Origin: Shigella phage SSP1
Length of the DNA: 64,000 nucleotides
Strand: one strand, 5' to 3'
Sequence record: KY963424
Part shown: piece by piece, positions 4,512 through 51,351 of the stretch
Layout: each line of letters opens with the position of its first letter
How positions within the stretch are numbered: the first letter of the stretch is position 1
Notes under the pieces: generated by a model
The model's input: only the letters and a program-made list of their open reading frames with translations
Told to the model about the DNA's origin: nothing
Databases searched by the model: none
Program-made: the position numbers and the translations under genes

Positions 4512-4990
4512 TTGATTATAATGGTCTAAAGACCATTTTTGGTGAAAAACTACCAGAATCTCATATCTTCTTTGCTACGGTTGCTGCGCATAAATATGTT
4601 CCTAGCTATGCTTTTCTACGTAGAGAACTAGGACTTTCATCTGCGCATACTAACCGTAAAGTATGGAAGAAATTTGTAGAGGCATATGGTAAAGCAGTTC
4701 CCCCTGCTCCACCATTAACTCTTTCTAAAGATTTAACTGCTAGTATGTCTATTACAGAAGGGGCAACATTAACACTTTCTGTTACTGCAACCGGTGGCAC
4801 CGGTCCTTATACTTACGCATGGACTAAAGATGGTTCTCCTATTCCAGGTGCTTCAGGAGCTACCTACACTAAGCCTGCAGCAGCTACTGATGATTCTGGA
4901 GTCTATAAAGCAACGGTTACAGATAGCAAGAAAGTTAGTAAACCTTCTACTGCATGTACAGTAACGGTTAATCCAGGTGTTGGAGGCTAA
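4508..4990 (+). CDS. Capsid decoration protein (pb10-like) with C-terminal Ig-like domain
   Basis: 160 aa; C-terminal ~90 aa (TLTLSVTATGGTGPYTYAWTKDGSPIPGASGATYTKPAAATDDSGVYKATVTD) looks like an Ig-like domain; T5 decoration protein has similar size and architecture. Confidence 0.55.
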   Translation: MIDYNGLKTIFGEKLPESHIFFATVAAHKYVPSYAFLRRELGLSSAHTNRKVWKKFVEAYGKAVPPAPPLTLSKDLTASMSITEGATLTLSVTATGGTGPYTYAWTKDGSPIPGASGATYTKPAAATDDSGVYKATVTDSKKVSKPSTACTVTVNPGVGG

Positions 4991-4993
4991 TAA

Positions 4994-5626
4994 ATGACAC
5001 AAGCTGCTATTGACTATAACAAGTTAAAATCAGCACCGGTTCATTTAGATGCTTATATTAAATCTATTGATAGCGAATCCAAAGAGGGTGTTGTAAAAAT
5101 CCGTGGATTCGCTAATACAATTAGTAAAGATCGCGCTGGTGATGTAATTCCTGCTTCGGCATGGAAAACATCTAATGCACTTGCTAACTACATGAAAAAC
5201 CCGATTATTCTTTTCGGACATGACCATCGTCGTCCAATCGGCAAGTGTATTGATCTTAACCCTACTGAAATGGGTCTCGAAATCGAATGCGAGATCTACG
5301 AAAGTTCTGATCCGGCTATCTTTTCACTAATTAAAAACGGTGTACTGAAAACTTTTAGTATCGGATTCCGCTGCCTAGATGCAGAGTGGGATGAAGCTAC
5401 TGATATATTTATTATTAAAGATTTAGAACTATACGAAGTCTCGGTAGTTTCTGTACCTTGTAATCAGGACTCAACATTCAACCTCGCTAAGAGCATGAAT
5501 GGTCATGATTATACTGAATGGCGTAAATCTTTTACTGCAATAAGTTCTAAAGCTGTCCCAGCTCAAGAACGTAATCTTTCTGAACTAGAAAAACTTGCGA
5601 TAGCTTTAGGCTACGTTAAAGAATAA
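4994..5626 (+). CDS. Prohead maturation protease
   Basis: 210 aa, immediately upstream of the major capsid gene; GGAGG SD; position and size match a prohead protease (T5 pb11-like). Confidence 0.6.
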   Translation: MTQAAIDYNKLKSAPVHLDAYIKSIDSESKEGVVKIRGFANTISKDRAGDVIPASAWKTSNALANYMKNPIILFGHDHRRPIGKCIDLNPTEMGLEIECEIYESSDPAIFSLIKNGVLKTFSIGFRCLDAEWDEATDIFIIKDLELYEVSVVSVPCNQDSTFNLAKSMNGHDYTEWRKSFTAISSKAVPAQERNLSELEKLAIALGYVKE

Positions 5627-37957: not shown

Positions 37958-37987
37958 ATTATACCAAATCTTTAAGCGATTCAGCAA
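37958..37987 (-). promoter_or_regulatory. sigma70 early promoter for DNA polymerase gene (overlaps primase stop)
   Basis: - strand: TTGCTG - 18 bp - TATAAT, AT-rich upstream; transcript leader contains a 9-bp inverted repeat (TTGGTAAGT/ACTTACCAA) just upstream of the SD. Confidence 0.55.
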
Positions 37988-38849
37988 CTAAAATTTCAAT
38001 ACGTTTTGCTAACATATCAATTTCATCTTTGTTTAAGTCACCTGGATCTTTGCCTTCTGGTAGAAGAAAGTTAGCAACTACAGGTGTTAAACGCGTTTTT
38101 GTACGAATTAATTTGGCCAATGCTTGTGCAGCTTTATTACCAGAAGCATCATTATCTAGTAAGATAACAACAACTTTAACACCAGCAATAATATAAGGAC
38201 TGAACTTATCTGCAATGTTATCTGGAGTGAACTGATGTGTACCAAAGCAGCAAGAAGCATAGTCTATACCATTATCCTCTAGGTTCAGCATATCAAAGAT
38301 ACCTTCAACTAGGATAAGAACTGGAGTATTATATCGTACAGGGAAAATCGGTGGTGAAACTTGTTTTGGTTTTACTAAGTATTTAGGAGGGGCAGAACTG
38401 TTTATAGAACGACCCAAAAATAGGATATTGCGTCCAACAGCATCTGTGATTGGGAATACAATTCTGCCTTCCCAGTCTGCTTGGTGTTGGAAAGCAAAAT
38501 ATTTCTTCAAGGTCTTAGAACTTATACCTCGGAAATCACCTTCGAAAAGGTAAGCAGATTCAGGAATTGCAAGATTCGTAGATCCATTCCTAATCTCTGA
38601 AATCTTTTTACGTACCTGCGATAGTCTTGGGGACTGTCGGTACTGAGTCTCATTAAAATAATGGTAAATGCTCGGTATACCTTTACCGAAGCCACAACTC
38701 AAGCAGTGCATAATACCTGTTTCAGGATCAATACGCAAACTTGGGTGTTTATCGTCATGATCTGGATTGAGACAACAGATGAGGATGTCCCCACCTGTGT
38801 CTTTATATTCAATGCCTTTCAGATCAAGTAGTTCTGTTATTCTACTCAT
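37959..38849 (-). CDS. DNA primase (DnaG-like: zinc-binding + TOPRIM)
   Basis: 296 aa; CHC2 zinc finger (CCLNPDHDDKHPSLRI ... CLSCGFGKG); TOPRIM acidic residues (LVEGIFDMLNLEDNGID, ILLDNDASG). Confidence 0.8.
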   Translation of the reverse strand: MSRITELLDLKGIEYKDTGGDILICCLNPDHDDKHPSLRIDPETGIMHCLSCGFGKGIPSIYHYFNETQYRQSPRLSQVRKKISEIRNGSTNLAIPESAYLFEGDFRGISSKTLKKYFAFQHQADWEGRIVFPITDAVGRNILFLGRSINSSAPPKYLVKPKQVSPPIFPVRYNTPVLILVEGIFDMLNLEDNGIDYASCCFGTHQFTPDNIADKFSPYIIAGVKVVVILLDNDASGNKAAQALAKLIRTKTRLTPVVANFLLPEGKDPGDLNKDEIDMLAKRIEILVAESLKDLV

Positions 38850-40369
38850 ATATCGCTGGCCTGTTCACCTGTTGAATTTTCAGCTTTGTCTTTCTTAGCA
38901 CGTTTAGGTTGAGCCGGCTTATCCTTCTCAATAGGGATAACGAACTCAGCTTCCATTTGAGATATATCTTCCATTGCTAGGTTGGTAGTGTTATCCATTC
39001 GCAGAGTTTCCCAGTTCATTTTAGGCATAAACTTCACGCTATCAGAAGAACGAGTCTTAACGAAGTCAAACATAATAGCACCTTGACCATTATCAGCTTT
39101 TGCAGCATTAAGATTAGCAGCCATGTCTGCGGAATCAAGAATCCCCTTTGACATACGTGTTCTACCATCTTGATCGATCTGGTAAGGAGCTACACCAGCC
39201 ACGTTATGTTTCTGGCAGATAGATTTGAAAGACGAGCTGACAACCATCTGTTCTTTCCAGTCATACATATCAATGGTTTTAGAGTCTGGAAGTCGGGTTT
39301 GGTTAATATAGTCCAGTAAAGCTACTGTAACTTTATCACCATATCTAGCAACTAATTTATTTAGTTCTACGTCAACTGTTGTAATGGACAGTTCAGGATC
39401 ATAAACAATAATCATAGGAGTATGTAGCTCATACCCTTCTATTAGTTTACTCTCCATATCGTAGAAATCACTCATCTTAGCCATTGTGTACTGTTTAACG
39501 AAGCTATCGAAAAGCTCTTCACCACCATTAAACATTCTAGCTCTAGTTCTGGCTAATCTCAACAGAGCTGCACCTTCTAGAGTATTATTACGCATTGCTA
39601 GTGCTGATACACCTGCTAACATGGCTAAATTACGCCTAAATACTTCATGTTCTTTCATCTCAATTGAGAAGTATGGAGCAATATCCCCATTCAAATATTG
39701 CTGAACCTGTATGTTTGAACAGATAATGGATTTACCAGTACCACGCCAACCACCAAGCAGTAACGTTTCTGTGCGAGCTAAACCAATTTGAGCGTCGAAC
39801 TCATTACAAATACCAAGAGCGATTAAGTTCAGTTTGGTATCTTCTTCTCTCTGGAAAATACGCATGTTATCTGCGTTGAATACTTTTCCAGTATTCGTTA
39901 CTTTCTCTTCTAATTTTAAGTGAAGGGAGGCAACTCGGTTGAGAATTTCTCCCTGATCCAGCATTGTTAAATCTTGAAGCACGTCTGTTTCTAGAAGCTT
40001 CAGGAATAAATCCTGTGTATATTCGGCTTCTAGGACTTCAAGTGCCTGTTCCATGCTCACTTCTGGAATTTGAGTGTTAGCTAAGACGACTAGAGCTTGA
40101 GAAAGGCGGGCGTTCCTATTAGCTTCAAGCATAAGTGCGTCAATGGACGGCATTGTGTTATATTTTTTATAATAATTCTGGACGGCTTGGTAAATTGAGG
40201 AGAAAGCGTCATTAAAATGATCTTTATGCAGTTTTGAGAATGTTTCCAATGCTATTTGCTTCTGTTCGGAAGCTAGAAGCATCTTCAACACTACAGCTTG
40301 CACGTTAAACAAGGTCATTCTCCTTTGCACGCTTTCGTGCCTTCTAAATGCAAAAAGGGGAAGGAGCAT
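38846..40369 (-). CDS. Replicative DNA helicase (DnaB-like)
   Basis: Walker A GGWRGTGKS, H1a FSIEM, Walker B VALLDYINQ, H4-like APYQIDQDGR. Start ambiguous: ATG 40367-40369 (inside a hairpin loop, preceded by GGGGAGG) or ATG 40316-40318. Confidence 0.7.
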   Translation of the reverse strand: MLLPLFAFRRHESVQRRMTLFNVQAVVLKMLLASEQKQIALETFSKLHKDHFNDAFSSIYQAVQNYYKKYNTMPSIDALMLEANRNARLSQALVVLANTQIPEVSMEQALEVLEAEYTQDLFLKLLETDVLQDLTMLDQGEILNRVASLHLKLEEKVTNTGKVFNADNMRIFQREEDTKLNLIALGICNEFDAQIGLARTETLLLGGWRGTGKSIICSNIQVQQYLNGDIAPYFSIEMKEHEVFRRNLAMLAGVSALAMRNNTLEGAALLRLARTRARMFNGGEELFDSFVKQYTMAKMSDFYDMESKLIEGYELHTPMIIVYDPELSITTVDVELNKLVARYGDKVTVALLDYINQTRLPDSKTIDMYDWKEQMVVSSSFKSICQKHNVAGVAPYQIDQDGRTRMSKGILDSADMAANLNAAKADNGQGAIMFDFVKTRSSDSVKFMPKMNWETLRMDNTTNLAMEDISQMEAEFVIPIEKDKPAQPKRAKKDKAENSTGEQASDI

Positions 40370-40400: not shown

Positions 40401-41168
40401 TTATTCAGCAGCCGCAGCTTTTGCATCCAGTTTAGCACGCTTAGCGGCACCATCATAGTCCTTAGCAACCAGACCACGACGAGACAGCATAGATTTAACA
40501 CCACGCTCAGACTTACCAGTTTTCTCAGCGATCTCAGCAACAGTCATGTTAACCAGATCCAGACCTTCTAACAGATCTTCACGAGTTTTAGCACTTGAAG
40601 TTTCCTGTACCGGCATAGCAGCGATACGACCTTCACGAAGCAGGCTCAGAGCTTTACCACGGATCTGCTTAATATTGCGGCCGAAGTGAGCAGCGATAGC
40701 TTCAATAGTAGCACCAGCAACAACCTGATTAACAAAATCAGTTTCTTCATCCGGAGTGAAGGAACGAACAGCAGCAGCTTTTTCAGTTGGCTTAACAGAA
40801 GCGGTCATTTCCAGGCTCAGAATCTTACCCTGTACCTGCTTAGCACCGAACTGACCACCAGCTACAGCAGCAGCGATTTCAGCATAGGTATACTGACCAG
40901 CATGAGCGTTCAGGAAATCAACCAGTTCAGCTTCCTGCTCAGGAGTCCACGGGGATTTCTGTACTTCGTTAGCTTTCTGTACTTCAAAACCTTCTTTACG
41001 CAGTTTAGAGCCAACAGAGCGAGCAGTAACGTCTTTGCCAGTTTCAGCAGCCAGTTCAGTAGCGATAGCAGCTACTTGTTCTTGAGAGATTACAGCAACA
41101 CCCAGAGCAGTGGCTTTTGCTTTCAGAGACTCGGTTACACCTTCTACGTTCCAGTTCAGTTTAGACAT
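40401..41168 (-). CDS. DNA-binding protein with four tandem HTH-like repeats (T5 D5-like position, putative)
   Basis: 255 aa; four repeats resembling sigma70 region-4-type HTH (e.g. TIEAIAAHFGRNIKQIRGKALSLLREG; MTVAEIAEKTGKSERGVKSMLSRRGL); host-optimised codon usage. Confidence 0.45.
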   Translation of the reverse strand: MSKLNWNVEGVTESLKAKATALGVAVISQEQVAAIATELAAETGKDVTARSVGSKLRKEGFEVQKANEVQKSPWTPEQEAELVDFLNAHAGQYTYAEIAAAVAGGQFGAKQVQGKILSLEMTASVKPTEKAAAVRSFTPDEETDFVNQVVAGATIEAIAAHFGRNIKQIRGKALSLLREGRIAAMPVQETSSAKTREDLLEGLDLVNMTVAEIAEKTGKSERGVKSMLSRRGLVAKDYDGAAKRAKLDAKAAAAE

Positions 41169-41940
41169 TATTATTTTTCTCCAATAGTTCTTTAATCGAC
41201 AGGATTTCTATCCCATTCGTTTCGGCTTTCTTATAAGATGAGGAAGAACGTTTTGATTCATCCTCACAGATTAGGTATTTGACGTCTTTAGTAACGGATT
41301 TCTTAACCGTATACCCTAGACTTTCTAAATAGTTTGTTGCATCCGTTCTATTTGCAAAATCTTGCAAAGATCCGGTAATACATACCGCGATTCCGTTTGG
41401 CTGGGCAACTAATTCATCTGTAATTATGATATTAGCTTTTGCACCTCTGATACCAGTTGAGAATTTCCACGGTAGTTCGATAACATCCTTGCCTTGTGGG
41501 GAATTTAGCCAGGCTCTATAGTTTTCTCCAGCCTTGCCGTCAGCCTTCACATCGTGGAAGCTAGTGCAATTTTGGGATAATTTCTTTGCTGCAACCTCTC
41601 CAATTAGAGGGATTCCTAAAGAACCGAGAACTGAATCAAAGTCAATGTCTCCGCGAACTTTAGTATTTAATTCGCTAATTAACTTAGCGGCAACCTTGCT
41701 ACCCACGGCTCTAACCAAATCTTCTTCGGTTAGGTAAAACAGTTCTGAAATCTTCGTCAGCTCCAGCTTCTCAATAGTTTTTGGGCCAAAGCCCTTTAAC
41801 TTCATTTTTGTACAGAAGTTCTCAATTAACTTACTTGATTGCGCTGGACAGTTGGACTTATTCCGACAGAATAATTGTCCGTTGACAAGATCTAGCTTAG
41901 AACCACAAGAGGGACATTGTGTTGGAATTTCGATTTTCAT
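41161..41940 (-). CDS. lig: NAD-dependent DNA ligase, C-terminal part (Zn finger, HhH, BRCT) - separate ORF
   Basis: About 259 aa from ATG 41938-41940 (AAGGAAG SD); C4 zinc finger CPSCGSKLDLVNGQLFCRNKSNCPAQ, HhH region, BRCT-like C-terminus. Confidence 0.75.
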   Translation of the reverse strand: MKIEIPTQCPSCGSKLDLVNGQLFCRNKSNCPAQSSKLIENFCTKMKLKGFGPKTIEKLELTKISELFYLTEEDLVRAVGSKVAAKLISELNTKVRGDIDFDSVLGSLGIPLIGEVAAKKLSQNCTSFHDVKADGKAGENYRAWLNSPQGKDVIELPWKFSTGIRGAKANIIITDELVAQPNGIAVCITGSLQDFANRTDATNYLESLGYTVKKSVTKDVKYLICEDESKRSSSSYKKAETNGIEILSIKELLEKNNNV

Positions 41941-41970
41941 CAAATTTCTTCCTTATCAATTTATATAAAT

Positions 41971-42142: not shown

Positions 42143-43114
42143 TTAATCGTATACTCGCTCTACTATGCACGGGATTACACCACCAGCACGAATTACTCGA
42201 ATCTGGCAACCGATCTCTAGATCAAGAGAGTTAATATAATCAACGTTATTAAGAGTCGCTTTAACAATTGTAGCATCATCAATAATTACCGGTTCGAAAT
42301 AACCAACTGGAGTTACTTTACCAGAAGCCCCTACCTGCCACTCAACTTTAGTAAGAGTTGTAATCTCGCCTTCTTCATCCTCTTTAATAGCGAATGCTCC
42401 ACGAGGGAATTTATTAGTCCAGCCTTCTCGGAAGAATTTGTTGTTGTCATTAATACGAACAACTTTACCGTCCGTCGGAATCCATTTAAAGAAGGAACGC
42501 ACATTAACAACTGTTAAGAAATCTTCATTCTCTAGCCAGAGCATATCTTTTAAATATGATTCTGTAATACCTACAGATTCAGCAGAACACTGGATACCAT
42601 ATGCAACGAAGATTAAACCACCTTCCCCGATACGTTGTACGAAATCATCGCTATCTTTGAGGTTAATAGCGCCAGAGGCAAAGTTACGTTTATTTTCTAC
42701 TTCTTTTGTAATTAGAACTTCACCAGTGATTTGAGTAGGTACTTTTTGGGAAATCTTTTGAGGGATATTTAGCAATCTTACGTTGCTTGTGACATCATTC
42801 CCTAGAATACCATTACCACGAGTTAGTGCTTGAACAAAATCTCCATTAATATATAACAGAGAAATCGCACAACCATCTAACTTATCAGTTTCTACCTGAC
42901 CTAATGGATTAAATGGAGGTTTATCTCCACGATTATAATAAACTTTCTGTAAAGAATACATACGATACAGATGTGGAATATCACCTTTAGGCCCGATCTC
43001 TTCTTCTAACGGAAATCTTTTAATCAGACGATCATATTCTTCGTCAGAGATTAAAGACATTCCCTGGTAATATGCTTCTTGACAACGTTTAATAAAGTCT
43101 TTTACATTAGTCAT
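42143..43114 (-). CDS. lig: NAD-dependent DNA ligase, N-terminal part (adenylation + OB domains) - separate ORF
   Basis: 323 aa; adenylation KxDG motif (KLDGCAISLLY) and following nucleotidyltransferase/OB-fold region typical of LigA; ends at a stop codon 199 bp upstream of the C-terminal ORF. Confidence 0.75.
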   Translation of the reverse strand: MTNVKDFIKRCQEAYYQGMSLISDEEYDRLIKRFPLEEEIGPKGDIPHLYRMYSLQKVYYNRGDKPPFNPLGQVETDKLDGCAISLLYINGDFVQALTRGNGILGNDVTSNVRLLNIPQKISQKVPTQITGEVLITKEVENKRNFASGAINLKDSDDFVQRIGEGGLIFVAYGIQCSAESVGITESYLKDMLWLENEDFLTVVNVRSFFKWIPTDGKVVRINDNNKFFREGWTNKFPRGAFAIKEDEEGEITTLTKVEWQVGASGKVTPVGYFEPVIIDDATIVKATLNNVDYINSLDLEIGCQIRVIRAGGVIPCIVERVYD

Positions 43115-44589: not shown

Positions 44590-44844
44590 CTACACATCTA
44601 GTTCAACAATCTCCCAATCATCAGCCAGAGCCTCGTCTAGGGTAAGGTTTACTTGACGGATAAGCGGGGATTCCATACCGTTCTCCCACACATGTTCAGT
44701 CACTGTACCCTGCTCTACGTTAAATTCTAAAACCACTGTAAAGTGTTTATTGTTTTCCCAGCAATCTCGCTGGAGATATTTTACGTCCCCAGCTTTCAGC
44801 AAATCTGTTAGCTTACTCACGGCGTTTTCCTTTTTCTTTATCAA
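44590..44844 (-). CDS. Hypothetical protein
   Basis: 84-aa ORF. Confidence 0.35.
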   Translation of the reverse strand: MIKKKENAVSKLTDLLKAGDVKYLQRDCWENNKHFTVVLEFNVEQGTVTEHVWENGMESPLIRQVNLTLDEALADDWEIVELDV

Positions 44845-45517
44845 GTTTCAGGGCAGCCTTAACAGCTTCGTTAATCAACGTAATAATTTCTTCACGAGTC
44901 CATTTATATCCCAGAGATTTTACGTCAACCCCTAGCTTTTCCAGGTGTTTAACAGAAGCCAGCTCGTAATTCATATAATGGACGTTCTGTTGTTTGCCTT
45001 CTGATAGAAGCCATACACGGTAGCAACCAACAGGATTATCCATTGCTTTTTTGATTTCACCGATACACTGGTATCCAGGAACCCAAACAAGCTCACCAAC
45101 TGCAAATTCTTCTGCTACAGCATCATCAGGAATAATTGGAGGATTCAATGGATCTACAATATCGTTCAAACGAAGTAAAGCACCATAGCGTTCCAAAACT
45201 GATTTGACCATTGCTACAGAGCGATAATTACGATCAGCAATTTCTTCAAAAGAATCACCAGATAAATACTGCTCAATAACGTTAGCTAACTCAATGCCTT
45301 CAATGAGTGTGCCACGTTTCTTTTTCTTCATTTCGGCAACTTGGATCTGGCGGTCTTGCCATTCTTCAATCATCCTTTCCATAGTTGGATTGGATGATAC
45401 GCCGAGCATTTCACATGCTGCTTTCTTAGTACCACCGTTCTCCAGATGCTCTATAACTTTTTTAAAGACTTCATCCGGGATTTCATGGATATGTTTCTTT
45501 CTACGAGAACCAGCCAT
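44813..45517 (-). CDS. Putative HTH DNA-binding/regulatory protein
   Basis: 234 aa; N-terminal HTH-like segment (GGTKKAACEMLGVSSNPTMERMIEEW); GAGAGGAG SD. Confidence 0.4.
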   Translation of the reverse strand: MAGSRRKKHIHEIPDEVFKKVIEHLENGGTKKAACEMLGVSSNPTMERMIEEWQDRQIQVAEMKKKKRGTLIEGIELANVIEQYLSGDSFEEIADRNYRSVAMVKSVLERYGALLRLNDIVDPLNPPIIPDDAVAEEFAVGELVWVPGYQCIGEIKKAMDNPVGCYRVWLLSEGKQQNVHYMNYELASVKHLEKLGVDVKSLGYKWTREEIITLINEAVKAALKLDKEKGKRRE

Positions 45518-45585: not shown

Positions 45586-45828
45586 TTACGATTCCTTGAG
45601 CAAAGAAGCAAGTTCAGCATAGACTTTATCTAACTCAAAGCCGATGCGAAGAGACACGTTTGTTTTCCGTTGTTTAAGTAACCACTCGGATATGTTAGGG
45701 ATGCCAGCTAATCTATGCGGTACCACCCTACATAGCTTTTCCGAAGTGTCGTAAACAGGAACTTTACGTTCTTTTACTGGGAACTTCCTTGTTTCCCATT
45801 TTTTATTCTTCACTGTCATTTCTAGCAC
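45586..45828 (-). CDS. Hypothetical protein
   Basis: 80-aa ORF overlapping the 3' end of the large helicase gene. Confidence 0.35.
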   Translation of the reverse strand: MLEMTVKNKKWETRKFPVKERKVPVYDTSEKLCRVVPHRLAGIPNISEWLLKQRKTNVSLRIGFELDKVYAELASLLKES

Positions 45829-48592
45829 CTAGCTCTGCCATTGCTTCATCATGCATATGTTTCTCCTCGTCAGTCATAAACTTATATGGGATTGGCATAC
45901 ACTCGATTTTACAATAAGTTCTGTACCAGTCTACAATATTCTCCGTATTCATATCCTTACCAATACCCATCATACCAAGATACATTCTCGCATATTTTGG
46001 GTTAGCACTCTGACCTGTTTTAAGGAAGAAATCTTTCTTTTTACCTTTCAGAGCTTCTATGAATGGTTTGATAGTGACATTTGAACACTTCTTAATATCT
46101 TCCCAGAACATCTCGTGCATTTTATGGAAAAATGCCGCTCGATCATTCGGTTTATCCTTGATATATTGTTCAACATGCTCAACTGTTACATCTTTAATAG
46201 ACTCAAGATGATAGTAGCGAACAAGAAGTAGTTTAGCTTCATACGCATCTGCATGGCGTGGAGCACAATAATCAGGAGTTGAATACAAAATAGCTTTGAT
46301 TCGCTCTTCCGTATATTCCTTCCCAGCACCTTCGATAGTTCCCCAGCTTTCACTGAAAATATCAATAGTTGCACCCTGATCAAGCAAGTAATAACGTAAA
46401 GTACTAGTATAGTTCCTAGATTCCAGCTCCCTACGACGTGCGTATAATTGCTGTGCTAACTCCAGCCAACCTTCATCAATGTTATATTGCTCAGAACCTG
46501 CGGAGAATCCACTCGTAGATTTATCAATAAAATAATAAATGTTCTGAGCGCCACGGTCGCGCCTGATTGCTTGAAAACGCATGTTTGGCGCTTGGTTGCT
46601 GGTTCTAGTAATAACGAATACGTTATCAAAATAGTTGAAGTCAACACCACTAGTTACTGATGGACTACATAATAAGCAATCAATTTGTTGGTCAATTAGC
46701 TCATTAGTTGTGTAATCCAGAATACGTCTAATATCTACATCAGACGTAGAGTTTGAGTGGATTTCCTTAACTAACGCACCCGTATTACGACGCAACGCCA
46801 TGCCCTTCTCATTCAGTTCATCTGGACCACAGTCAGATACTAGGATAGATTTCTCACCCATCTCTAGAGAAGTCTGAAGTGCAACCCAAATACTGGATTC
46901 ATCAGGGAACTCATAAGCATGAGCTTTTGACAGCATTTTACGGTGGTGATTATAAAATGCAACCGGTTTATCAAAATCAATTAGAGAACCGTAGGCTTCA
47001 ATAGTCTCAGCACTAATATCACCATCGGATAAGATTACAGTTTTAGCTGTCATGAGGATGTCACGTAGAACTTGAATACACTCGCGACGTTGTTTAACAA
47101 CTGGGGCGAATAATAGATCATTCATTACAGCGTCACATTCATCAATAAAGATGGTGTCTATTTGACCAATAAAACTTTTGAACTTATGCAAAGAGTGAAT
47201 AGTTGTGGACATACGATCAATAGCTCCACGTTTAAAGTTGAGCATATCTACAGACTTATCATATTGTCCTGCGCTAAATTTCTTAGCGTTTGAAGATACC
47301 AGCGCTCTAGTATTTGTAACTGCTAAAAAGTTGCCAGGAAGAACCCCTGCGTCCAGCCATTTAGTTACTGCCGTAGTTTTACCAGTACCAAGACTTGCCT
47401 TAACAAATGTTATATGGCCCTTTGGGGGCACAATGTTAATCTTCAGGTATGGAACTTCTGGTGGAGAATCCACTTCTAATTTCTTGAGTGGAACACCCTT
47501 CAGATTTAATGGAATCTCACGTTTAGAATTATTAACAAACGCTTTGAGAGCCTGCTTACGACCGTTATTAAAGTAATCTTGAATATTACGACTGTTATCT
47601 TTAGTTGCAATATATTCAGATAAAGCGGGTTTAATCTCACGTTCTAGCCATGCGAAATCAACACCATCCTCTAATGCTCTATGGTATAGTTTGGGGATAA
47701 TACGCAAGTACACCCCATCATCAGCTTCTTCCAATTCGCTGATGGTTTCTTCTACTTTATCAGAAGCAATCTTTTTGCCTTTAATTTGATCAAGTAAAGA
47801 ATAAAACTCTTCCTTAAACTCCCCTCTAGTTGTTTCATAGTCAACCAGATTATTAGGCAAATTTACCTTCGAACCTTTAACATACACCAGACGTGGCTTA
47901 CTCTCCGCTTTAAACGGATCAACAATACCATCGCTAAATAAAGGGTCGGCAAAATAGTGAAGCTGGACAGATGAATAATAAGCTAAGTCGGCAATATCAA
48001 AACCGAATTTTTGCTTACTACTATCATTGATAGACGTAAATAGGAACTTTAACTGACCTTGAGTTACCTTGACGTTAGATTCTAGCATTAAGTGCATTCG
48101 GATACCTGGTTTTAGGCCAGCCGAAGACGATGCATGAGCAATAAACCCTGCATCAAGAGGAAACATGTCCTCACTAATACTATTCAACATCTTAATAATG
48201 TGGCGGGCCATACCTACAAGATTAAACTTGTCGTACCCACCGGTATCTATGATACCATCCACGTCCATAGCAATAATATTGCTAGGGTTGGATACATTAA
48301 AGTTACCTTTCTTACGTCGCACATTATTTTTAGGTGCAAGACATCGACCTCGTACCGCAACGATATGAGGGTCAGACGTTAAACGTCTCATAAGTGGTAA
48401 CATTTCGGCAAGGCTTTGCGGGTCATGCTCTTCTATTACATCAAATTTGAAGGGCATAGAAGCTGGTTTACCTTCTGGATGCTCTTTCGAGAATCGTTTG
48501 GCAAAGGTATAATCTTCCGCTTTGATTTCTCGCCAAATACCTGTTGCTAAATCACGAGAAAATCCGGCGTGACCTTGGAGGATAGAAAACAC
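45803..48592 (-). CDS. Large replication protein: N-terminal primase-polymerase-like region fused to an SF2 helicase-type ATPase (origin-binding-protein-like)
   Basis: 929 aa; GTG start 48590-48592 after CAGGAG SD; acidic MDVDGIIDTGG segment; Walker A ASLGTGKTT, Walker B IFIDECD, further helicase motifs (SDGD, TSGVD, QAIRRDRG). Confidence 0.55.
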   Translation of the reverse strand: MFSILQGHAGFSRDLATGIWREIKAEDYTFAKRFSKEHPEGKPASMPFKFDVIEEHDPQSLAEMLPLMRRLTSDPHIVAVRGRCLAPKNNVRRKKGNFNVSNPSNIIAMDVDGIIDTGGYDKFNLVGMARHIIKMLNSISEDMFPLDAGFIAHASSSAGLKPGIRMHLMLESNVKVTQGQLKFLFTSINDSSKQKFGFDIADLAYYSSVQLHYFADPLFSDGIVDPFKAESKPRLVYVKGSKVNLPNNLVDYETTRGEFKEEFYSLLDQIKGKKIASDKVEETISELEEADDGVYLRIIPKLYHRALEDGVDFAWLEREIKPALSEYIATKDNSRNIQDYFNNGRKQALKAFVNNSKREIPLNLKGVPLKKLEVDSPPEVPYLKINIVPPKGHITFVKASLGTGKTTAVTKWLDAGVLPGNFLAVTNTRALVSSNAKKFSAGQYDKSVDMLNFKRGAIDRMSTTIHSLHKFKSFIGQIDTIFIDECDAVMNDLLFAPVVKQRRECIQVLRDILMTAKTVILSDGDISAETIEAYGSLIDFDKPVAFYNHHRKMLSKAHAYEFPDESSIWVALQTSLEMGEKSILVSDCGPDELNEKGMALRRNTGALVKEIHSNSTSDVDIRRILDYTTNELIDQQIDCLLCSPSVTSGVDFNYFDNVFVITRTSNQAPNMRFQAIRRDRGAQNIYYFIDKSTSGFSAGSEQYNIDEGWLELAQQLYARRRELESRNYTSTLRYYLLDQGATIDIFSESWGTIEGAGKEYTEERIKAILYSTPDYCAPRHADAYEAKLLLVRYYHLESIKDVTVEHVEQYIKDKPNDRAAFFHKMHEMFWEDIKKCSNVTIKPFIEALKGKKKDFFLKTGQSANPKYARMYLGMMGIGKDMNTENIVDWYRTYCKIECMPIPYKFMTDEEKHMHDEAMAELGARNDSEE

Positions 48593-49089
48593 AACAATAC
48601 TCCTGTATTGATTAATCGAAATCTTTTCTTTAGGACTATTCAGAAAGAATAGAACAACTATTACTACTATTTACGTAAACATCAATTATCATCAAACAAT
48701 ATGAATAAGTTATCATATCTCAGTGCTGTGCTCTCTTCGCTCATATACAGAATAGAACCTAGGTCATTGGCCGCTAAGCCGATTCTATTTGTCCTCACTA
48801 TCCTATTGGTAGGTGACTACTGTACGTGCCGCCATTCGCTGCTCTTTTCGTTCGCACCCCCATATAAAGCTCTGCCTATATAACGAGCTAAATATGCACG
48901 GTTTGGATTTACCTTTCCGAATTCAGGGTACACAGATCACTTAATTGAAGATTAACTAATGCAATATAAACACTAGTAATAGTTAAAACAACCCTTAATG
49001 GGGCAGCCTAACTGTTCCGTATCGCGGATTGTAAACAAGAAAAATTAGCAAAATCAATTTTTACTAATGTCTCTCAATTCAATATAAAT

Positions 49090-49118
49090 ATTATATCAAG
49101 ATTTTGGGCATCCTGCAA
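49090..49118 (-). promoter_or_regulatory. sigma70 promoter about 500 nt upstream of the large replication protein gene
   Basis: - strand: TTGCAG - 17 bp - TATAAT followed by ATTTATATTGAATTGAGAGA, like other early promoter leaders. Confidence 0.5.
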
Positions 49119-49212
49119 GTAAAATTTTCCGGATGGTGCTATCATTGGTCTTGAGTACGGGTAAAACCGAGCCAAAATGACTCGGTAATCAGAGTTCAGC
49201 CAATAAAAATCA

Positions 49213-49602
49213 TTAGTCATTTAATCCCGGAACATAGATCCCAACACGGTTTAATTGTTCTTTAGCTTCTTTGAGAATATCTGGAGTGTACTCCCAAATA
49301 TCATCTTCCACCTGTAAAAGATGGGGCGAACAACCGTCATCCGGCACACGGCATATGGCCAAACCACGTGGGTGGAACAAAGAGAAATTTAGGGCAACAA
49401 TTAAACCCATAGCAGACAATTCATTCCAATCCAATTCCCATTCCCCCGCGTAGCCGGATAGGAAAACACCAACACAGGGATCATCTATTTGCTGCTCCGG
49501 AAAAGTGAAGGAGGCTTGTCTTACCCCCAACCAACGTTGTAGCAGCTTCTCCGCACGTTTCACCAAACTAGGATCAATCTGACGCCAATATACTTGTTCC
49601 AT
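49213..49602 (-). CDS. Hypothetical protein, paralog 1 of tandem pair
   Basis: 129 aa; shares collinear motifs with the adjacent 142-aa ORF (IDD.PC.G ... W.EL..MGL..ALN..LF.P ... Y.P ... G...PGL). Confidence 0.5.
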   Translation of the reverse strand: MEQVYWRQIDPSLVKRAEKLLQRWLGVRQASFTFPEQQIDDPCVGVFLSGYAGEWELDWNELSAMGLIVALNFSLFHPRGLAICRVPDDGCSPHLLQVEDDIWEYTPDILKEAKEQLNRVGIYVPGLND

Positions 49603-49611
49603 TGTGCCCCC

Positions 49612-50040
49612 TTAGGCAGTTAAACCTGGGATCATATACCCGAAACGTCGAAGTTTCTGAATCCCCTCATTTACTTCTTCCGGTGAGTAAGACCAACCAT
49701 AACGTTCATTAACCTGAAAACCAGGAGATTCACTAGTTTTATAGTTAACAACGAGGCGATGCTTAGCAGGCATAAACAGCTTATAGTTTAACGCAAAAAC
49801 TAAGCCCATTTCATCTAACTCTTTCCAGCCGACAATCTCTTCAAGACCCTCCTCTACCTGAACAATTAAACCAATACAGGGAGCCTCATCAATATCATCT
49901 TTAAAAGCAAAGGAGATTTCGTTATTCTCACACCATATTTTCAAAGAGTTAATAGCCTCATTATACAGGCTAGCTGGGAGAGTACGCCAAAAGTTAACCA
50001 AAATTGGATTAGCTTCTTTAGAGAATACATTATTGAACAT
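49612..50040 (-). CDS. Hypothetical protein, paralog 2 of tandem pair
   Basis: 142 aa; see paralog 1. Confidence 0.5.
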   Translation of the reverse strand: MFNNVFSKEANPILVNFWRTLPASLYNEAINSLKIWCENNEISFAFKDDIDEAPCIGLIVQVEEGLEEIVGWKELDEMGLVFALNYKLFMPAKHRLVVNYKTSESPGFQVNERYGWSYSPEEVNEGIQKLRRFGYMIPGLTA

Positions 50041-50042
50041 AT

Positions 50043-50555
50043 TTACACCTTAAATTGTTGTAGGGCTTTACACATTTCAAGATCTGGACTAAATTCTAAC
50101 ATATAGCTAACAGCTCTTAAATCTTGAAGATTTATCCCAGTTCTACCATTGACTATAACTGTTGGATACTGATACATCATAGCACCGGCATCATCCAGCA
50201 CACACCAATGTTTGAGCCTATGCTTTTCAACGAAGCGAAGAACAGAATTACCCCTAGATAATCCACCCCCAGTAAAATCCGTTGTACCAAGAAAACGATC
50301 GATAAGGCCTAATCCGGTCATAATCTGAACGTTCTCCATCTCATTTCTGACAGAGAACCAAGATGATACTCCAACAATCATTATCGGAGAAGGACGAATA
50401 AAGTCCTGAAAAGCCTTGAGAAGCGGTTTGAAAACCCAGTCACTTCCAAAGAAAATCTTTTCATCATCAGGTGCATGATGGTGGGAGATGCTCGAATTGA
50501 GCACCCCATCAATGTCTAGAAAAATAATTGGAATATTACTTATTTCCTGACACAT
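50043..50555 (-). CDS. HAD-superfamily phosphatase (nucleotidase-like)
   Basis: 170 aa; HAD motif I FLDIDGVLN, motif II-like VGVSSW, motif III/IV K ... VLDDAG. Confidence 0.6.
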   Translation of the reverse strand: MCQEISNIPIIFLDIDGVLNSSISHHHAPDDEKIFFGSDWVFKPLLKAFQDFIRPSPIMIVGVSSWFSVRNEMENVQIMTGLGLIDRFLGTTDFTGGGLSRGNSVLRFVEKHRLKHWCVLDDAGAMMYQYPTVIVNGRTGINLQDLRAVSYMLEFSPDLEMCKALQQFKV

Positions 50556-51351
50556 AAGGTCTACCCCCTAAATGAGCTTCTACACGAGCAATAAAATCAG
50601 TATCACTGAAAGCATCTACCGCACCTTTACTCCAGTAAGGGATACCGCGTTCTTCCAGCTGGTACATCTCACTACGAGTCATACCTTGATAGCTCGGTTC
50701 CGCCGCTAGTACACTATCATAGTAGTTAACAACCATAAGTTTCGCAGCAGTCAAATTAAGAACAGGAAATAATTCCCAATAGAAGTTAATTACTTGGTTA
50801 GAGCAACCAACCACAATGATCATATCTTGACTAGTAATACCATCAAAAACATTATACATTTCTGCATACGCTGGAGCATGCTCCCCAAAGAAGACTACAT
50901 TAGGTTTAACCCATTTATAATCATCTGGGTCAATAGAATTGTATCCTACATCAATAATCCGTTTATTGCTACTATTGTAGCTATCAGCTACAACAACCTC
51001 TTTTAAATATCCGTGAATGTGCAGAATGTCACTATGTGGAACGCCAGCACGCTCAATAAGGTCATCAACGTTGGTAGTCAAGTTTACTACTTGACCTGGG
51101 TATTGTTTATACCATTCACCAATACGCAAATGCGCAAGATTGGGTTCAACAGTTTTTAGCTCTTCACGACGCTTGTTGTAAAACATATGGGTTTTATGGT
51201 AAAAATTACCACGAAAGGCATGAATATTACACACTTCTTCTAGATCATAATCATCCCACAATGCTTTACCACTAGCAGTATCAGTACGAAAAGCTCGTAC
51301 ACCACTTTCAACACTCAAACCTGCACCGCTAATAATAATTAACCTACGCAC
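50536..51351 (-). CDS. SIR2-family (sirtuin-like) NAD-binding protein lacking the zinc ribbon
   Basis: 271 aa; ISGAGLSVESGVRAFR (sirtuin GAGIS.ESGIP.FR), TTNVDDLIERAG ... HIHG (TQNID.L ... HG), NVVFFGE, IIVVGCSNQV (VVGTS-like); no CxxC pairs. Confidence 0.7.
   Translation of the reverse strand: MRRLIIISGAGLSVESGVRAFRTDTASGKALWDDYDLEEVCNIHAFRGNFYHKTHMFYNKRREELKTVEPNLAHLRIGEWYKQYPGQVVNLTTNVDDLIERAGVPHSDILHIHGYLKEVVVADSYNSSNKRIIDVGYNSIDPDDYKWVKPNVVFFGEHAPAYAEMYNVFDGITSQDMIIVVGCSNQVINFYWELFPVLNLTAAKLMVVNYYDSVLAAEPSYQGMTRSEMYQLEERGIPYWSKGAVDAFSDTDFIARVEAHLGGRPYVSGNK

Follow-up and report, generated by a model that had tools for sequence, protein, structure and literature searches.

The D2 gene of the T5-like phages raises a simple question: what is the N-terminal third of its product? 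T5 is a classical model phage, and the T5-like phages are a very large group that is widely used in phage therapy work. We took up the question in a stretch of 64,000 nucleotides of Shigella phage SSP1 (KY963424), which we call the window and which carries D2 as a complete open reading frame of 929 aa. Up to now D2 has been taken for an unusual helicase and nothing more. Our analysis predicts that the helicase is preceded by a domain with the fold of the archaeo-eukaryotic primases (AEP, the superfamily that includes the primase-polymerases or PrimPols) and with intact, invariant catalytic motifs I to III. On the reading that we favor, and consider probable with some reservation, D2 is composed of four modules (an AEP-type head, residues 1-255; a linker, about 260-362; a superfamily 2, or SF2, helicase, 389-700; and a C-terminal domain, 701-929) and is an initiator that makes its own first primers.

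That the reading frame is no chance feature is plain, because it is 2.8 kb long and has hundreds of homologs. The window comes from a T5-like phage (Tequintavirus), the 4.6-kb region around the frame being 97.6% identical to that of Salmonella phage L6jm and matching 529 phage records. By its 99% identity, its start and its gene neighborhood, the product is T5 D2: there is no material difference in sequence, the genomic position and the GTG start (48592-48590, minus strand) are the same, the locus is syntenic with those of T5 st0 and L6jm, and the start is the one cloned by Wong et al. for T5 D2 (primer ...GTGTTTTCTATCCTCCAAGG). An earlier note on this DNA, made from the letters alone, had given the ends of the frame exactly; what it lacked was the minus strand and the identity with T5 D2.

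The gene, its helicase activity and AEP-helicase fusions as a kind are all known already. Purified T5 D2 was studied by Wong, Sayers & Sanders (2013, NAR 41:4587; PMC3632103), who found an ATPase that is stimulated by DNA and that unwinds partial duplexes with both polarities, the 3'-5' direction being the more robust. The Walker A residue K405 is needed for both ATPase and unwinding, and the K405E mutant is inactive (PMC3632103); unwinding has been reported as nucleotide-dependent but hydrolysis-independent. Moreover, D2 is an essential early protein, and D2 amber mutants of T5 make no net phage DNA (PMC3632103). The domain map published in 2013 comprises PF02399 (residues 392-532), the SF2 motifs, a predicted helix-turn-helix (HTH, 308-329) and coiled coils, and leaves the N-terminal third without assignment (PMC3632103). 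Many database records name the gene "replication origin binding protein," a label that is due solely to the match with the herpesvirus helicase UL9, and a few GenBank records name it "DNA primase C," from which it follows that some annotators saw a primase signal. Our full-text literature searches, in which coverage was incomplete and an earlier mention could have been passed over, returned no paper that ties T5 D2 to AEP or PrimPol. What is new here is that an AEP module, intact though highly divergent, is predicted in T5 D2 and in its about 100 homolog clusters.

The assignment starts from structure. An AlphaFold (AF2) model of residues 1-385, for which the input was a 29-sequence alignment, has a mean predicted local distance difference test score (pLDDT) of 88.6, and a Foldseek search of the PDB with the head model gave AEP-superfamily structures as 49 of the top 50 matches. 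Among the matches of the head are the polymerase domain (PolDom) of Mycobacterium tuberculosis LigD (E 9e-4, probability 0.99), the PrimPol of cyanophage S-2L, which has the highest template modelling (TM) score at 0.41, and a range of other AEPs, including African swine fever virus (ASFV) PrimPol, human PrimPol, Prim-PolC, the herpes simplex virus (HSV) primase, RepB' and the AEP of vaccinia virus (VACV) D5. The three catalytic motifs of the superfamily can be read off the head in their expected forms. Motif I has the form hhhDhD/E on a beta-strand, which IIAMDVD (residues 106-112) fits; motif II has the form sxH, small residues and then a histidine, and motif III the form hD, and both occur in D2. 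The acidic segment MDVDGIIDTGG, singled out in the earlier note along with Walker A and B and further helicase motifs, was located at residues 109-119 of the translated frame, and the helicase motifs were found in the frame as well.

Conservation is the second line of evidence. We gathered 74 full-length D2 homologs of 31-93% identity and aligned 37 of them, and in this alignment D110, D112, S155, S157, H167 and D202 are among the N-terminal residues that do not vary. In a larger set of full-length D2-like proteins, in which the head goes down to about 25% identity, D110, D112, S155, H167, D202 and P217 are the same throughout (98/98); D202 is also invariant in the wider head-domain family. 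Motif residues that are retained in all members while the head around them drifts this far form the pattern of an active site that has been preserved. Fold, motifs and context together would place the head, with good confidence, in the AEP superfamily, though not in its all3500-like family, and primase activity is predicted for it. The primase-polymerase-like N-terminus proposed in the earlier note is therefore borne out by a fold predicted at high confidence and by three invariant catalytic motifs. That note had named an N-terminal half devoid of any primase-polymerase or initiator-like fold as the outcome that would count against it, and the fold search pointed to a primase-polymerase fold there.

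The context is supplied by distant relatives, which were not easily found. When the query was limited to the N-terminal 380 aa, a word-index search yielded just two fragments, and it took the full-length query and an exhaustive phmmer search to go further; the phmmer search, run with residues 1-380 against 1.84 billion representatives, gave 86 proteins. Scored with the D2 family profile, the distant ones reach 60-135 bits, the matches covering positions of about 25-250. In five of these relatives (P0102-P0106) D2 modules other than the head occur too: the helicase core is present in four, the linker in three and the C-terminal domain in three, with all three extra modules only in P0104 and P0106, and with P0105 truncated at 482 aa. 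In the other distant relatives the head is joined to VapE (9 proteins), DUF5906 (8-11), PriCT_2 (5), D5_N (2), Pox_D5 (1) or AAA_25 (1), all of them usual fusion partners for AEP primases; the same repertoire has been described for the AEP primases of mobile elements (Kazlauskas et al. 2018; PMC5862659). Existing annotation agrees, in that PHROG 16950, "DNA primase," is matched by 30 of the 34 distant head domains, and one distant relative connects by tblastn both to the "DNA primase" of Xylella phage Xfas53 (E 7e-20) and to T5-like D2 N-termini (E 1e-12 to 1e-14). The Xfas53 protein, also called a P4-family primase, and PHROG 16950 have a head that is homologous to that of D2, with the DxD / SSSAG..H / D motifs; there the head is joined to D5/VapE-type NTPase modules, whereas in D2 it is joined to an SF2 helicase. 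The all3500-like AEPs of the PrimPol-PV1 supergroup were also tried as a family for the head and rejected, the hhalign comparison being negative and the likeness being confined to the repertoire of fusion partners. Fusions of all3500-like AEPs to remote SF2 helicases, with phage relatives that resemble UL9, were reported by Kazlauskas et al. (2018; PMC5862659), where T5 is not named.

A number of results weigh against a primase in D2. In Pfam, NCBIfam and PHROGs, residues 1-380 have no match other than the phage's own PHROG, and NCBIfam has no model for the head domain. Against PDB sequences, phmmer and hmmsearch left the head unmatched with the single protein as query and, at E<=10, with the D2-family profile and the wider domain-family profile. 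Comparison with S-2L PrimPol by hhalign, alone or with three relatives, gave a probability of <=0.12%, the profile of that family being thin at 4 sequences; the sole segment that hhalign paired was motif II of the head with motif II of S-2L PrimPol, a suggestive pairing, yet not a significant one. The head is, in short, a domain family outside the Pfam and NCBIfam models. The placement of the motifs, which fall where an AEP would have them, is based in turn on the secondary-structure elements of the model, not on three-dimensional clustering of the four residues. From the biochemical side, the literature reports no primer-synthesis activity for purified D2 and shows no origin-specific DNA binding by it, and the T5 replication origins are themselves unmapped, with conflicting reports. 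Finally, a phage that has a DnaG has no obvious need of a second primase.

What follows the head is an SF2 helicase with the two-RecA fold, Walker A, Walker B (DExD) and motifs V/VI. Pfam PF02399 (Herpes_ori_bp) matches residues 389-533 with 30.5 bits (cutoff 20), covering profile positions 46-197 of 820 only; HSV-1 UL9 is the best PDB sequence match of D2 (E 5.5e-5); and UL9 is again the top structural match (E 1.3e-14) of an AlphaFold model of full-length D2 (pLDDT 87.0), followed by generic SF2 helicases such as those of RecQ, DEAD-box and Hel308 type. The Foldseek alignment with UL9 has about 550 columns, for which the aligned ranges are not reported. Hence the suggestion in the earlier note of an SF2-type helicase resembling initiator helicases stands, on Pfam, PDB sequence and fold as UL9-like and on the published biochemistry of T5 D2 as a helicase. 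In sequence, the strongest relative of this helicase is CyRepA1 (NCBIfam NF042913; E 4.8e-35, residues 392-722), to which it is much closer than to UL9 (E 1e-7). D2 is not a member of the CyRepA1 family, scoring 121.5 bits against the family cutoff of 200 and aligning over the helicase part alone.

Comparison with known systems sharpens the question of what kind of protein D2 is. HSV UL9 (PF02399; PDB 9HGJ/9HGI) and D2 are alike as SF2 helicases of Duplodnaviria that are encoded beside a separate helicase-primase system, but they are only 14-15% identical and UL9 has no AEP head. UL9 also has a sequence-specific C-terminal origin-binding domain, and a correspondence between it and the C-terminal domain of D2 could not be demonstrated. 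CyRepA1 and CyRepA2 (NF042913; PMC10079941) share with D2 the order of a primase-like head, a helical linker and an SF2 helicase. Their role as replication initiators of cyanobacterial plasmids is proven, and they are built as a Toprim-related DUF3854 head followed by helices and a DEXDc helicase (PMC10079941). The head is where the two part, being DUF3854 in CyRepA and predicted AEP in D2, and it looks as though the primase head has been swapped by non-homologous replacement on a shared initiator helicase. The known AEP-helicase fusions (pRN1 ORF904, poxvirus D5/E5, ASFV PrimPol and S-2L PrimPol) likewise have an N-terminal AEP, an alpha-helical domain and an NTPase/helicase, but most of them use hexameric helicases of the superfamily 3 (SF3)/D5 type, unlike the UL9-like SF2 of D2.

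The 2 remaining modules are shared only with D2-type relatives. The linker holds the HTH predicted by Wong et al. and occupies the position of PriCT in AEP fusions; residues 258-390 have no Pfam match at E<=10, neither to PriCT-1 or PriCT-2 (PF08708/PF08707) nor to any other family, and the analogy is one of position and all-helical nature only. The C-terminal domain (701-929) has no match in Pfam and is a candidate DNA-binding or oligomerisation module. As a separate observation, the D2 homologs of Vibrio phages (P0056-P0062, P0071 and P0074) are extended at the C-terminus by 50-120 aa, a feature that the T5-type proteins lack; the extension ends with a short G-[GL]-[ISVA]-W-G motif in one to three copies and may be a partner-binding tail.

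The same phage also carries a complete second system. In the earlier note a separate DnaG-like primase and DnaB-like helicase had been pointed out, and from these 2 distinct priming and unwinding systems were deduced. Domain matches confirm both genes, which lie 6-10 kb from D2, downstream and on the same strand, and the deduction holds as a statement of gene content that is conserved in distant relatives. We examined gene content in two Vibrio phages (40-45% identity) and one metagenomic contig (35%), and in all three the D2-like gene heads a cluster with a split NAD ligase, a DnaB-like helicase, a DnaG-like primase and PolA. Thus, the coexistence of D2 with DnaB and DnaG is ancient and stable, which argues for distinct jobs of the 2 systems.

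From this perspective, a division of labor can be proposed. D2 would act as the replication initiator, its SF2 motor opening the DNA and its own AEP domain laying down the first primer or primers, after which the DnaB-like helicase and the DnaG-like primase would run the fork and prime the Okazaki fragments. Herpesviruses would offer one parallel, with UL9 as the initiator and UL5/UL52/UL8 at the fork, and the CyRepA plasmid initiators another. A bolder version can be offered only tentatively, as a possibility that we hold to be doubtful: D2 would be a self-sufficient initiator-primase of the origin that recognises or opens the origin or origins, unwinds bidirectionally and makes the first leading-strand primers with a highly divergent AEP family not recognised before, leaving DnaB and DnaG to the fork only. 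If this version is true, the bipolar and hydrolysis-independent unwinding would in part reflect binding of DNA and nucleotide by the AEP head, and tailed phages and herpesviruses would share an ancestral initiator of the UL9 type.

One objection accepts the fold and denies the activity: the AEP-like head would be a catalytically dead relic kept for DNA binding, loading or oligomerisation, and the DnaG-like primase would do all the priming in T5. The complete DnaG and DnaB pair speaks for this, as do the lack of any reported primase activity for D2, a head so divergent that no AEP sequence profile detects it, and the replacement of the motif II histidine by arginine in about 5 of the 34 distant head-domain relatives. 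A domain that has become inactive would normally not keep its catalytic residues, yet D110, D112, S155, H167 and D202 are kept in all 98 of the D2-like proteins, and for that we regard a dead head as unlikely. At the other extreme, structure prediction and fold search might have given a false positive, with residues 1-255 forming an unrelated alpha/beta domain; given the specificity of the AEP fold matches, this strikes us as very improbable.

An alternative of a different kind leaves the head active and moves it away from initiation. T5 DNA carries natural single-strand nicks, and D2 might be a repair or restart enzyme that combines a PrimPol-like reprimer with a 3'-5' SF2 helicase and works at stalled or collapsed forks, for instance at those nicks. 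The structural neighbors of the head include repair AEPs (LigD PolDom, human PrimPol and Prim-PolC), the fold of the helicase also resembles repair helicases of the RecQ and Hel308 types, and branched substrates suit a helicase that unwinds from either polarity. Against this, D2 amber mutants are without any net DNA, which fits initiation better. Moreover, the closest sequence relatives of the helicase, UL9 and the CyRepA plasmid Rep, are initiators, and T5 has another branch-migration helicase, D10. We therefore think a role in repair or restart improbable, and return to D2 as an initiator with its own primase. If the AEP module is intact and the reading true, T5-like phages would carry two unrelated primases, and the combination of an AEP with a UL9-like SF2 initiator would join the list of primase-helicase combinations, next to CyRepA. 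The module also provides a concrete and easily testable hypothesis for the start of T5 replication, and with it the published "bipolar helicase" experiments, for which full-length protein was used, deserve a fresh look.

Coordinates in the window of D2, its modules and motifs, and associated features.
Feature	Position	Strand	Residues	Basis and remarks
D2 open reading frame	45803..48592	minus	929 aa + stop	complete; T5 D2 ortholog (913/926 identical); PHROG 3712, E=0
Shine-Dalgarno AGGAG	48604-48600	minus		7 nt before the GTG start; read from sequence
Predicted AEP (PrimPol) fold domain	47828..48592	minus	1-255	structure model
AEP motif I, SNIIAMDVD (D110, D112)	48257..48283	minus	104-112	strand 104-114, DSSP of model
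AEP motif II, SSSAGLKPGIRMH (S155, H167)	48092..48130	minus	155-167	His on strand 164-176
AEP motif III, DLAYY (D202)	47975..47989	minus	202-206	after helix 178-196
Four-helix linker domain	47507..47815	minus	260-362	helices 278-289, 294-308, 313-331, 337-356
UL9/CyRepA-like SF2 helicase core, two RecA-like domains	46493..47428	minus	389-700	profile, PDB, fold
Walker A, SLGTGKTT (K405)	47375..47398	minus	399-406	alignment
Walker B / DExD, IDECD	47132..47146	minus	483-487	alignment
Helicase motif VI (arginine finger), RFQAIRRDR	46553..46579	minus	672-680	alignment
All-helical C-terminal domain	45806..46492	minus	701-929	pLDDT about 90
DnaG-like primase (Zn-ribbon, DnaG_N, Toprim)	37959..38849	minus		domain matches
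DnaB-like hexameric helicase (DnaB_C)	38846..40369	minus		domain matches
Terminator of the upstream gene, hairpin + T-run	49161..49186	minus		sequence; annotated in T5
Promoter TTGCAG-17-(TGa)TATAAT	49090..49118	minus		sequence; inside T5-annotated promoter, mapped onto the window

The earlier note had taken the long noncoding stretch directly upstream of D2 as a possible target of the protein. This stretch, 620 bp at 48593-49212, has no open reading frame of more than 60 aa. As a target or origin for D2 it finds no support: it is made up of a terminator, a promoter and a leader, no iteron-like or strong repeats were detected in it, and the gap is not conserved, measuring 0, 181 or 658 bp upstream of the D2-like gene in the distant relatives. 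The untranslated leader runs for about 490 nt from the promoter to the D2 start (48593-49090, minus strand); it is 91-99% conserved in many tequintaviruses and half replaced in others. Its RNA structure is only mildly better than that of shuffled sequences (z -2.2), the upstream region has no Rfam family, and a promoter and terminator scan of the region did no better than on shuffles. GC skew was considered as an origin marker as well and was set aside, since it tracks transcription direction and nothing else.

The surroundings of D2 have features of their own. On the downstream side, the next small open reading frame (45586-45828) overlaps the D2 stop by 26 nt. In T5 st0 an HNH homing endonuclease gene follows right after D2 (4781-5281 of the T5 st0 locus) that is absent from the window, and in the T5-like phages SE11 and SE8 an HNH gene sits at another spot of the 4.6-kb D2 region; from these differing sites it follows that mobile endonucleases repeatedly target the neighborhood of D2. 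The 234-aa frame at 44813-45517 (minus) is T5 D3 (T5p109), for which the sole Pfam signal is a weak HTH_28. Many GenBank and RefSeq records of T5-like phages label it "D2 protein" or "helicase," and apparently the name of D2 slid one gene downstream through propagated annotation. Farther along, the NAD-dependent DNA ligase is split into 2 frames, 41161-41943 and 42143-43114 (both minus), about 200 bp apart; the parts are adenylation + OB and HhH + BRCT, and the split is kept in all three distant relatives.

On the other side, directly upstream of the D2 promoter region, 2 tandem paralogs at 49213-49602 and 49612-50040 (both minus) match DUF7415 (E 9e-32 and 5e-36) and end with a similar ...PGL motif. 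The 170-aa frame at 50043-50555 (minus) is phosphatase-like by its match to HAD_SAK_2 (E 7.5e-20) and is called "Sir2" in the RefSeq record of L6jm; the true SIR2-family protein is the product of the overlapping upstream frame at 50536-51351 (minus, 271 aa). The SIR2 and HAD(SAK) genes form a pair within the early region of this lytic phage.

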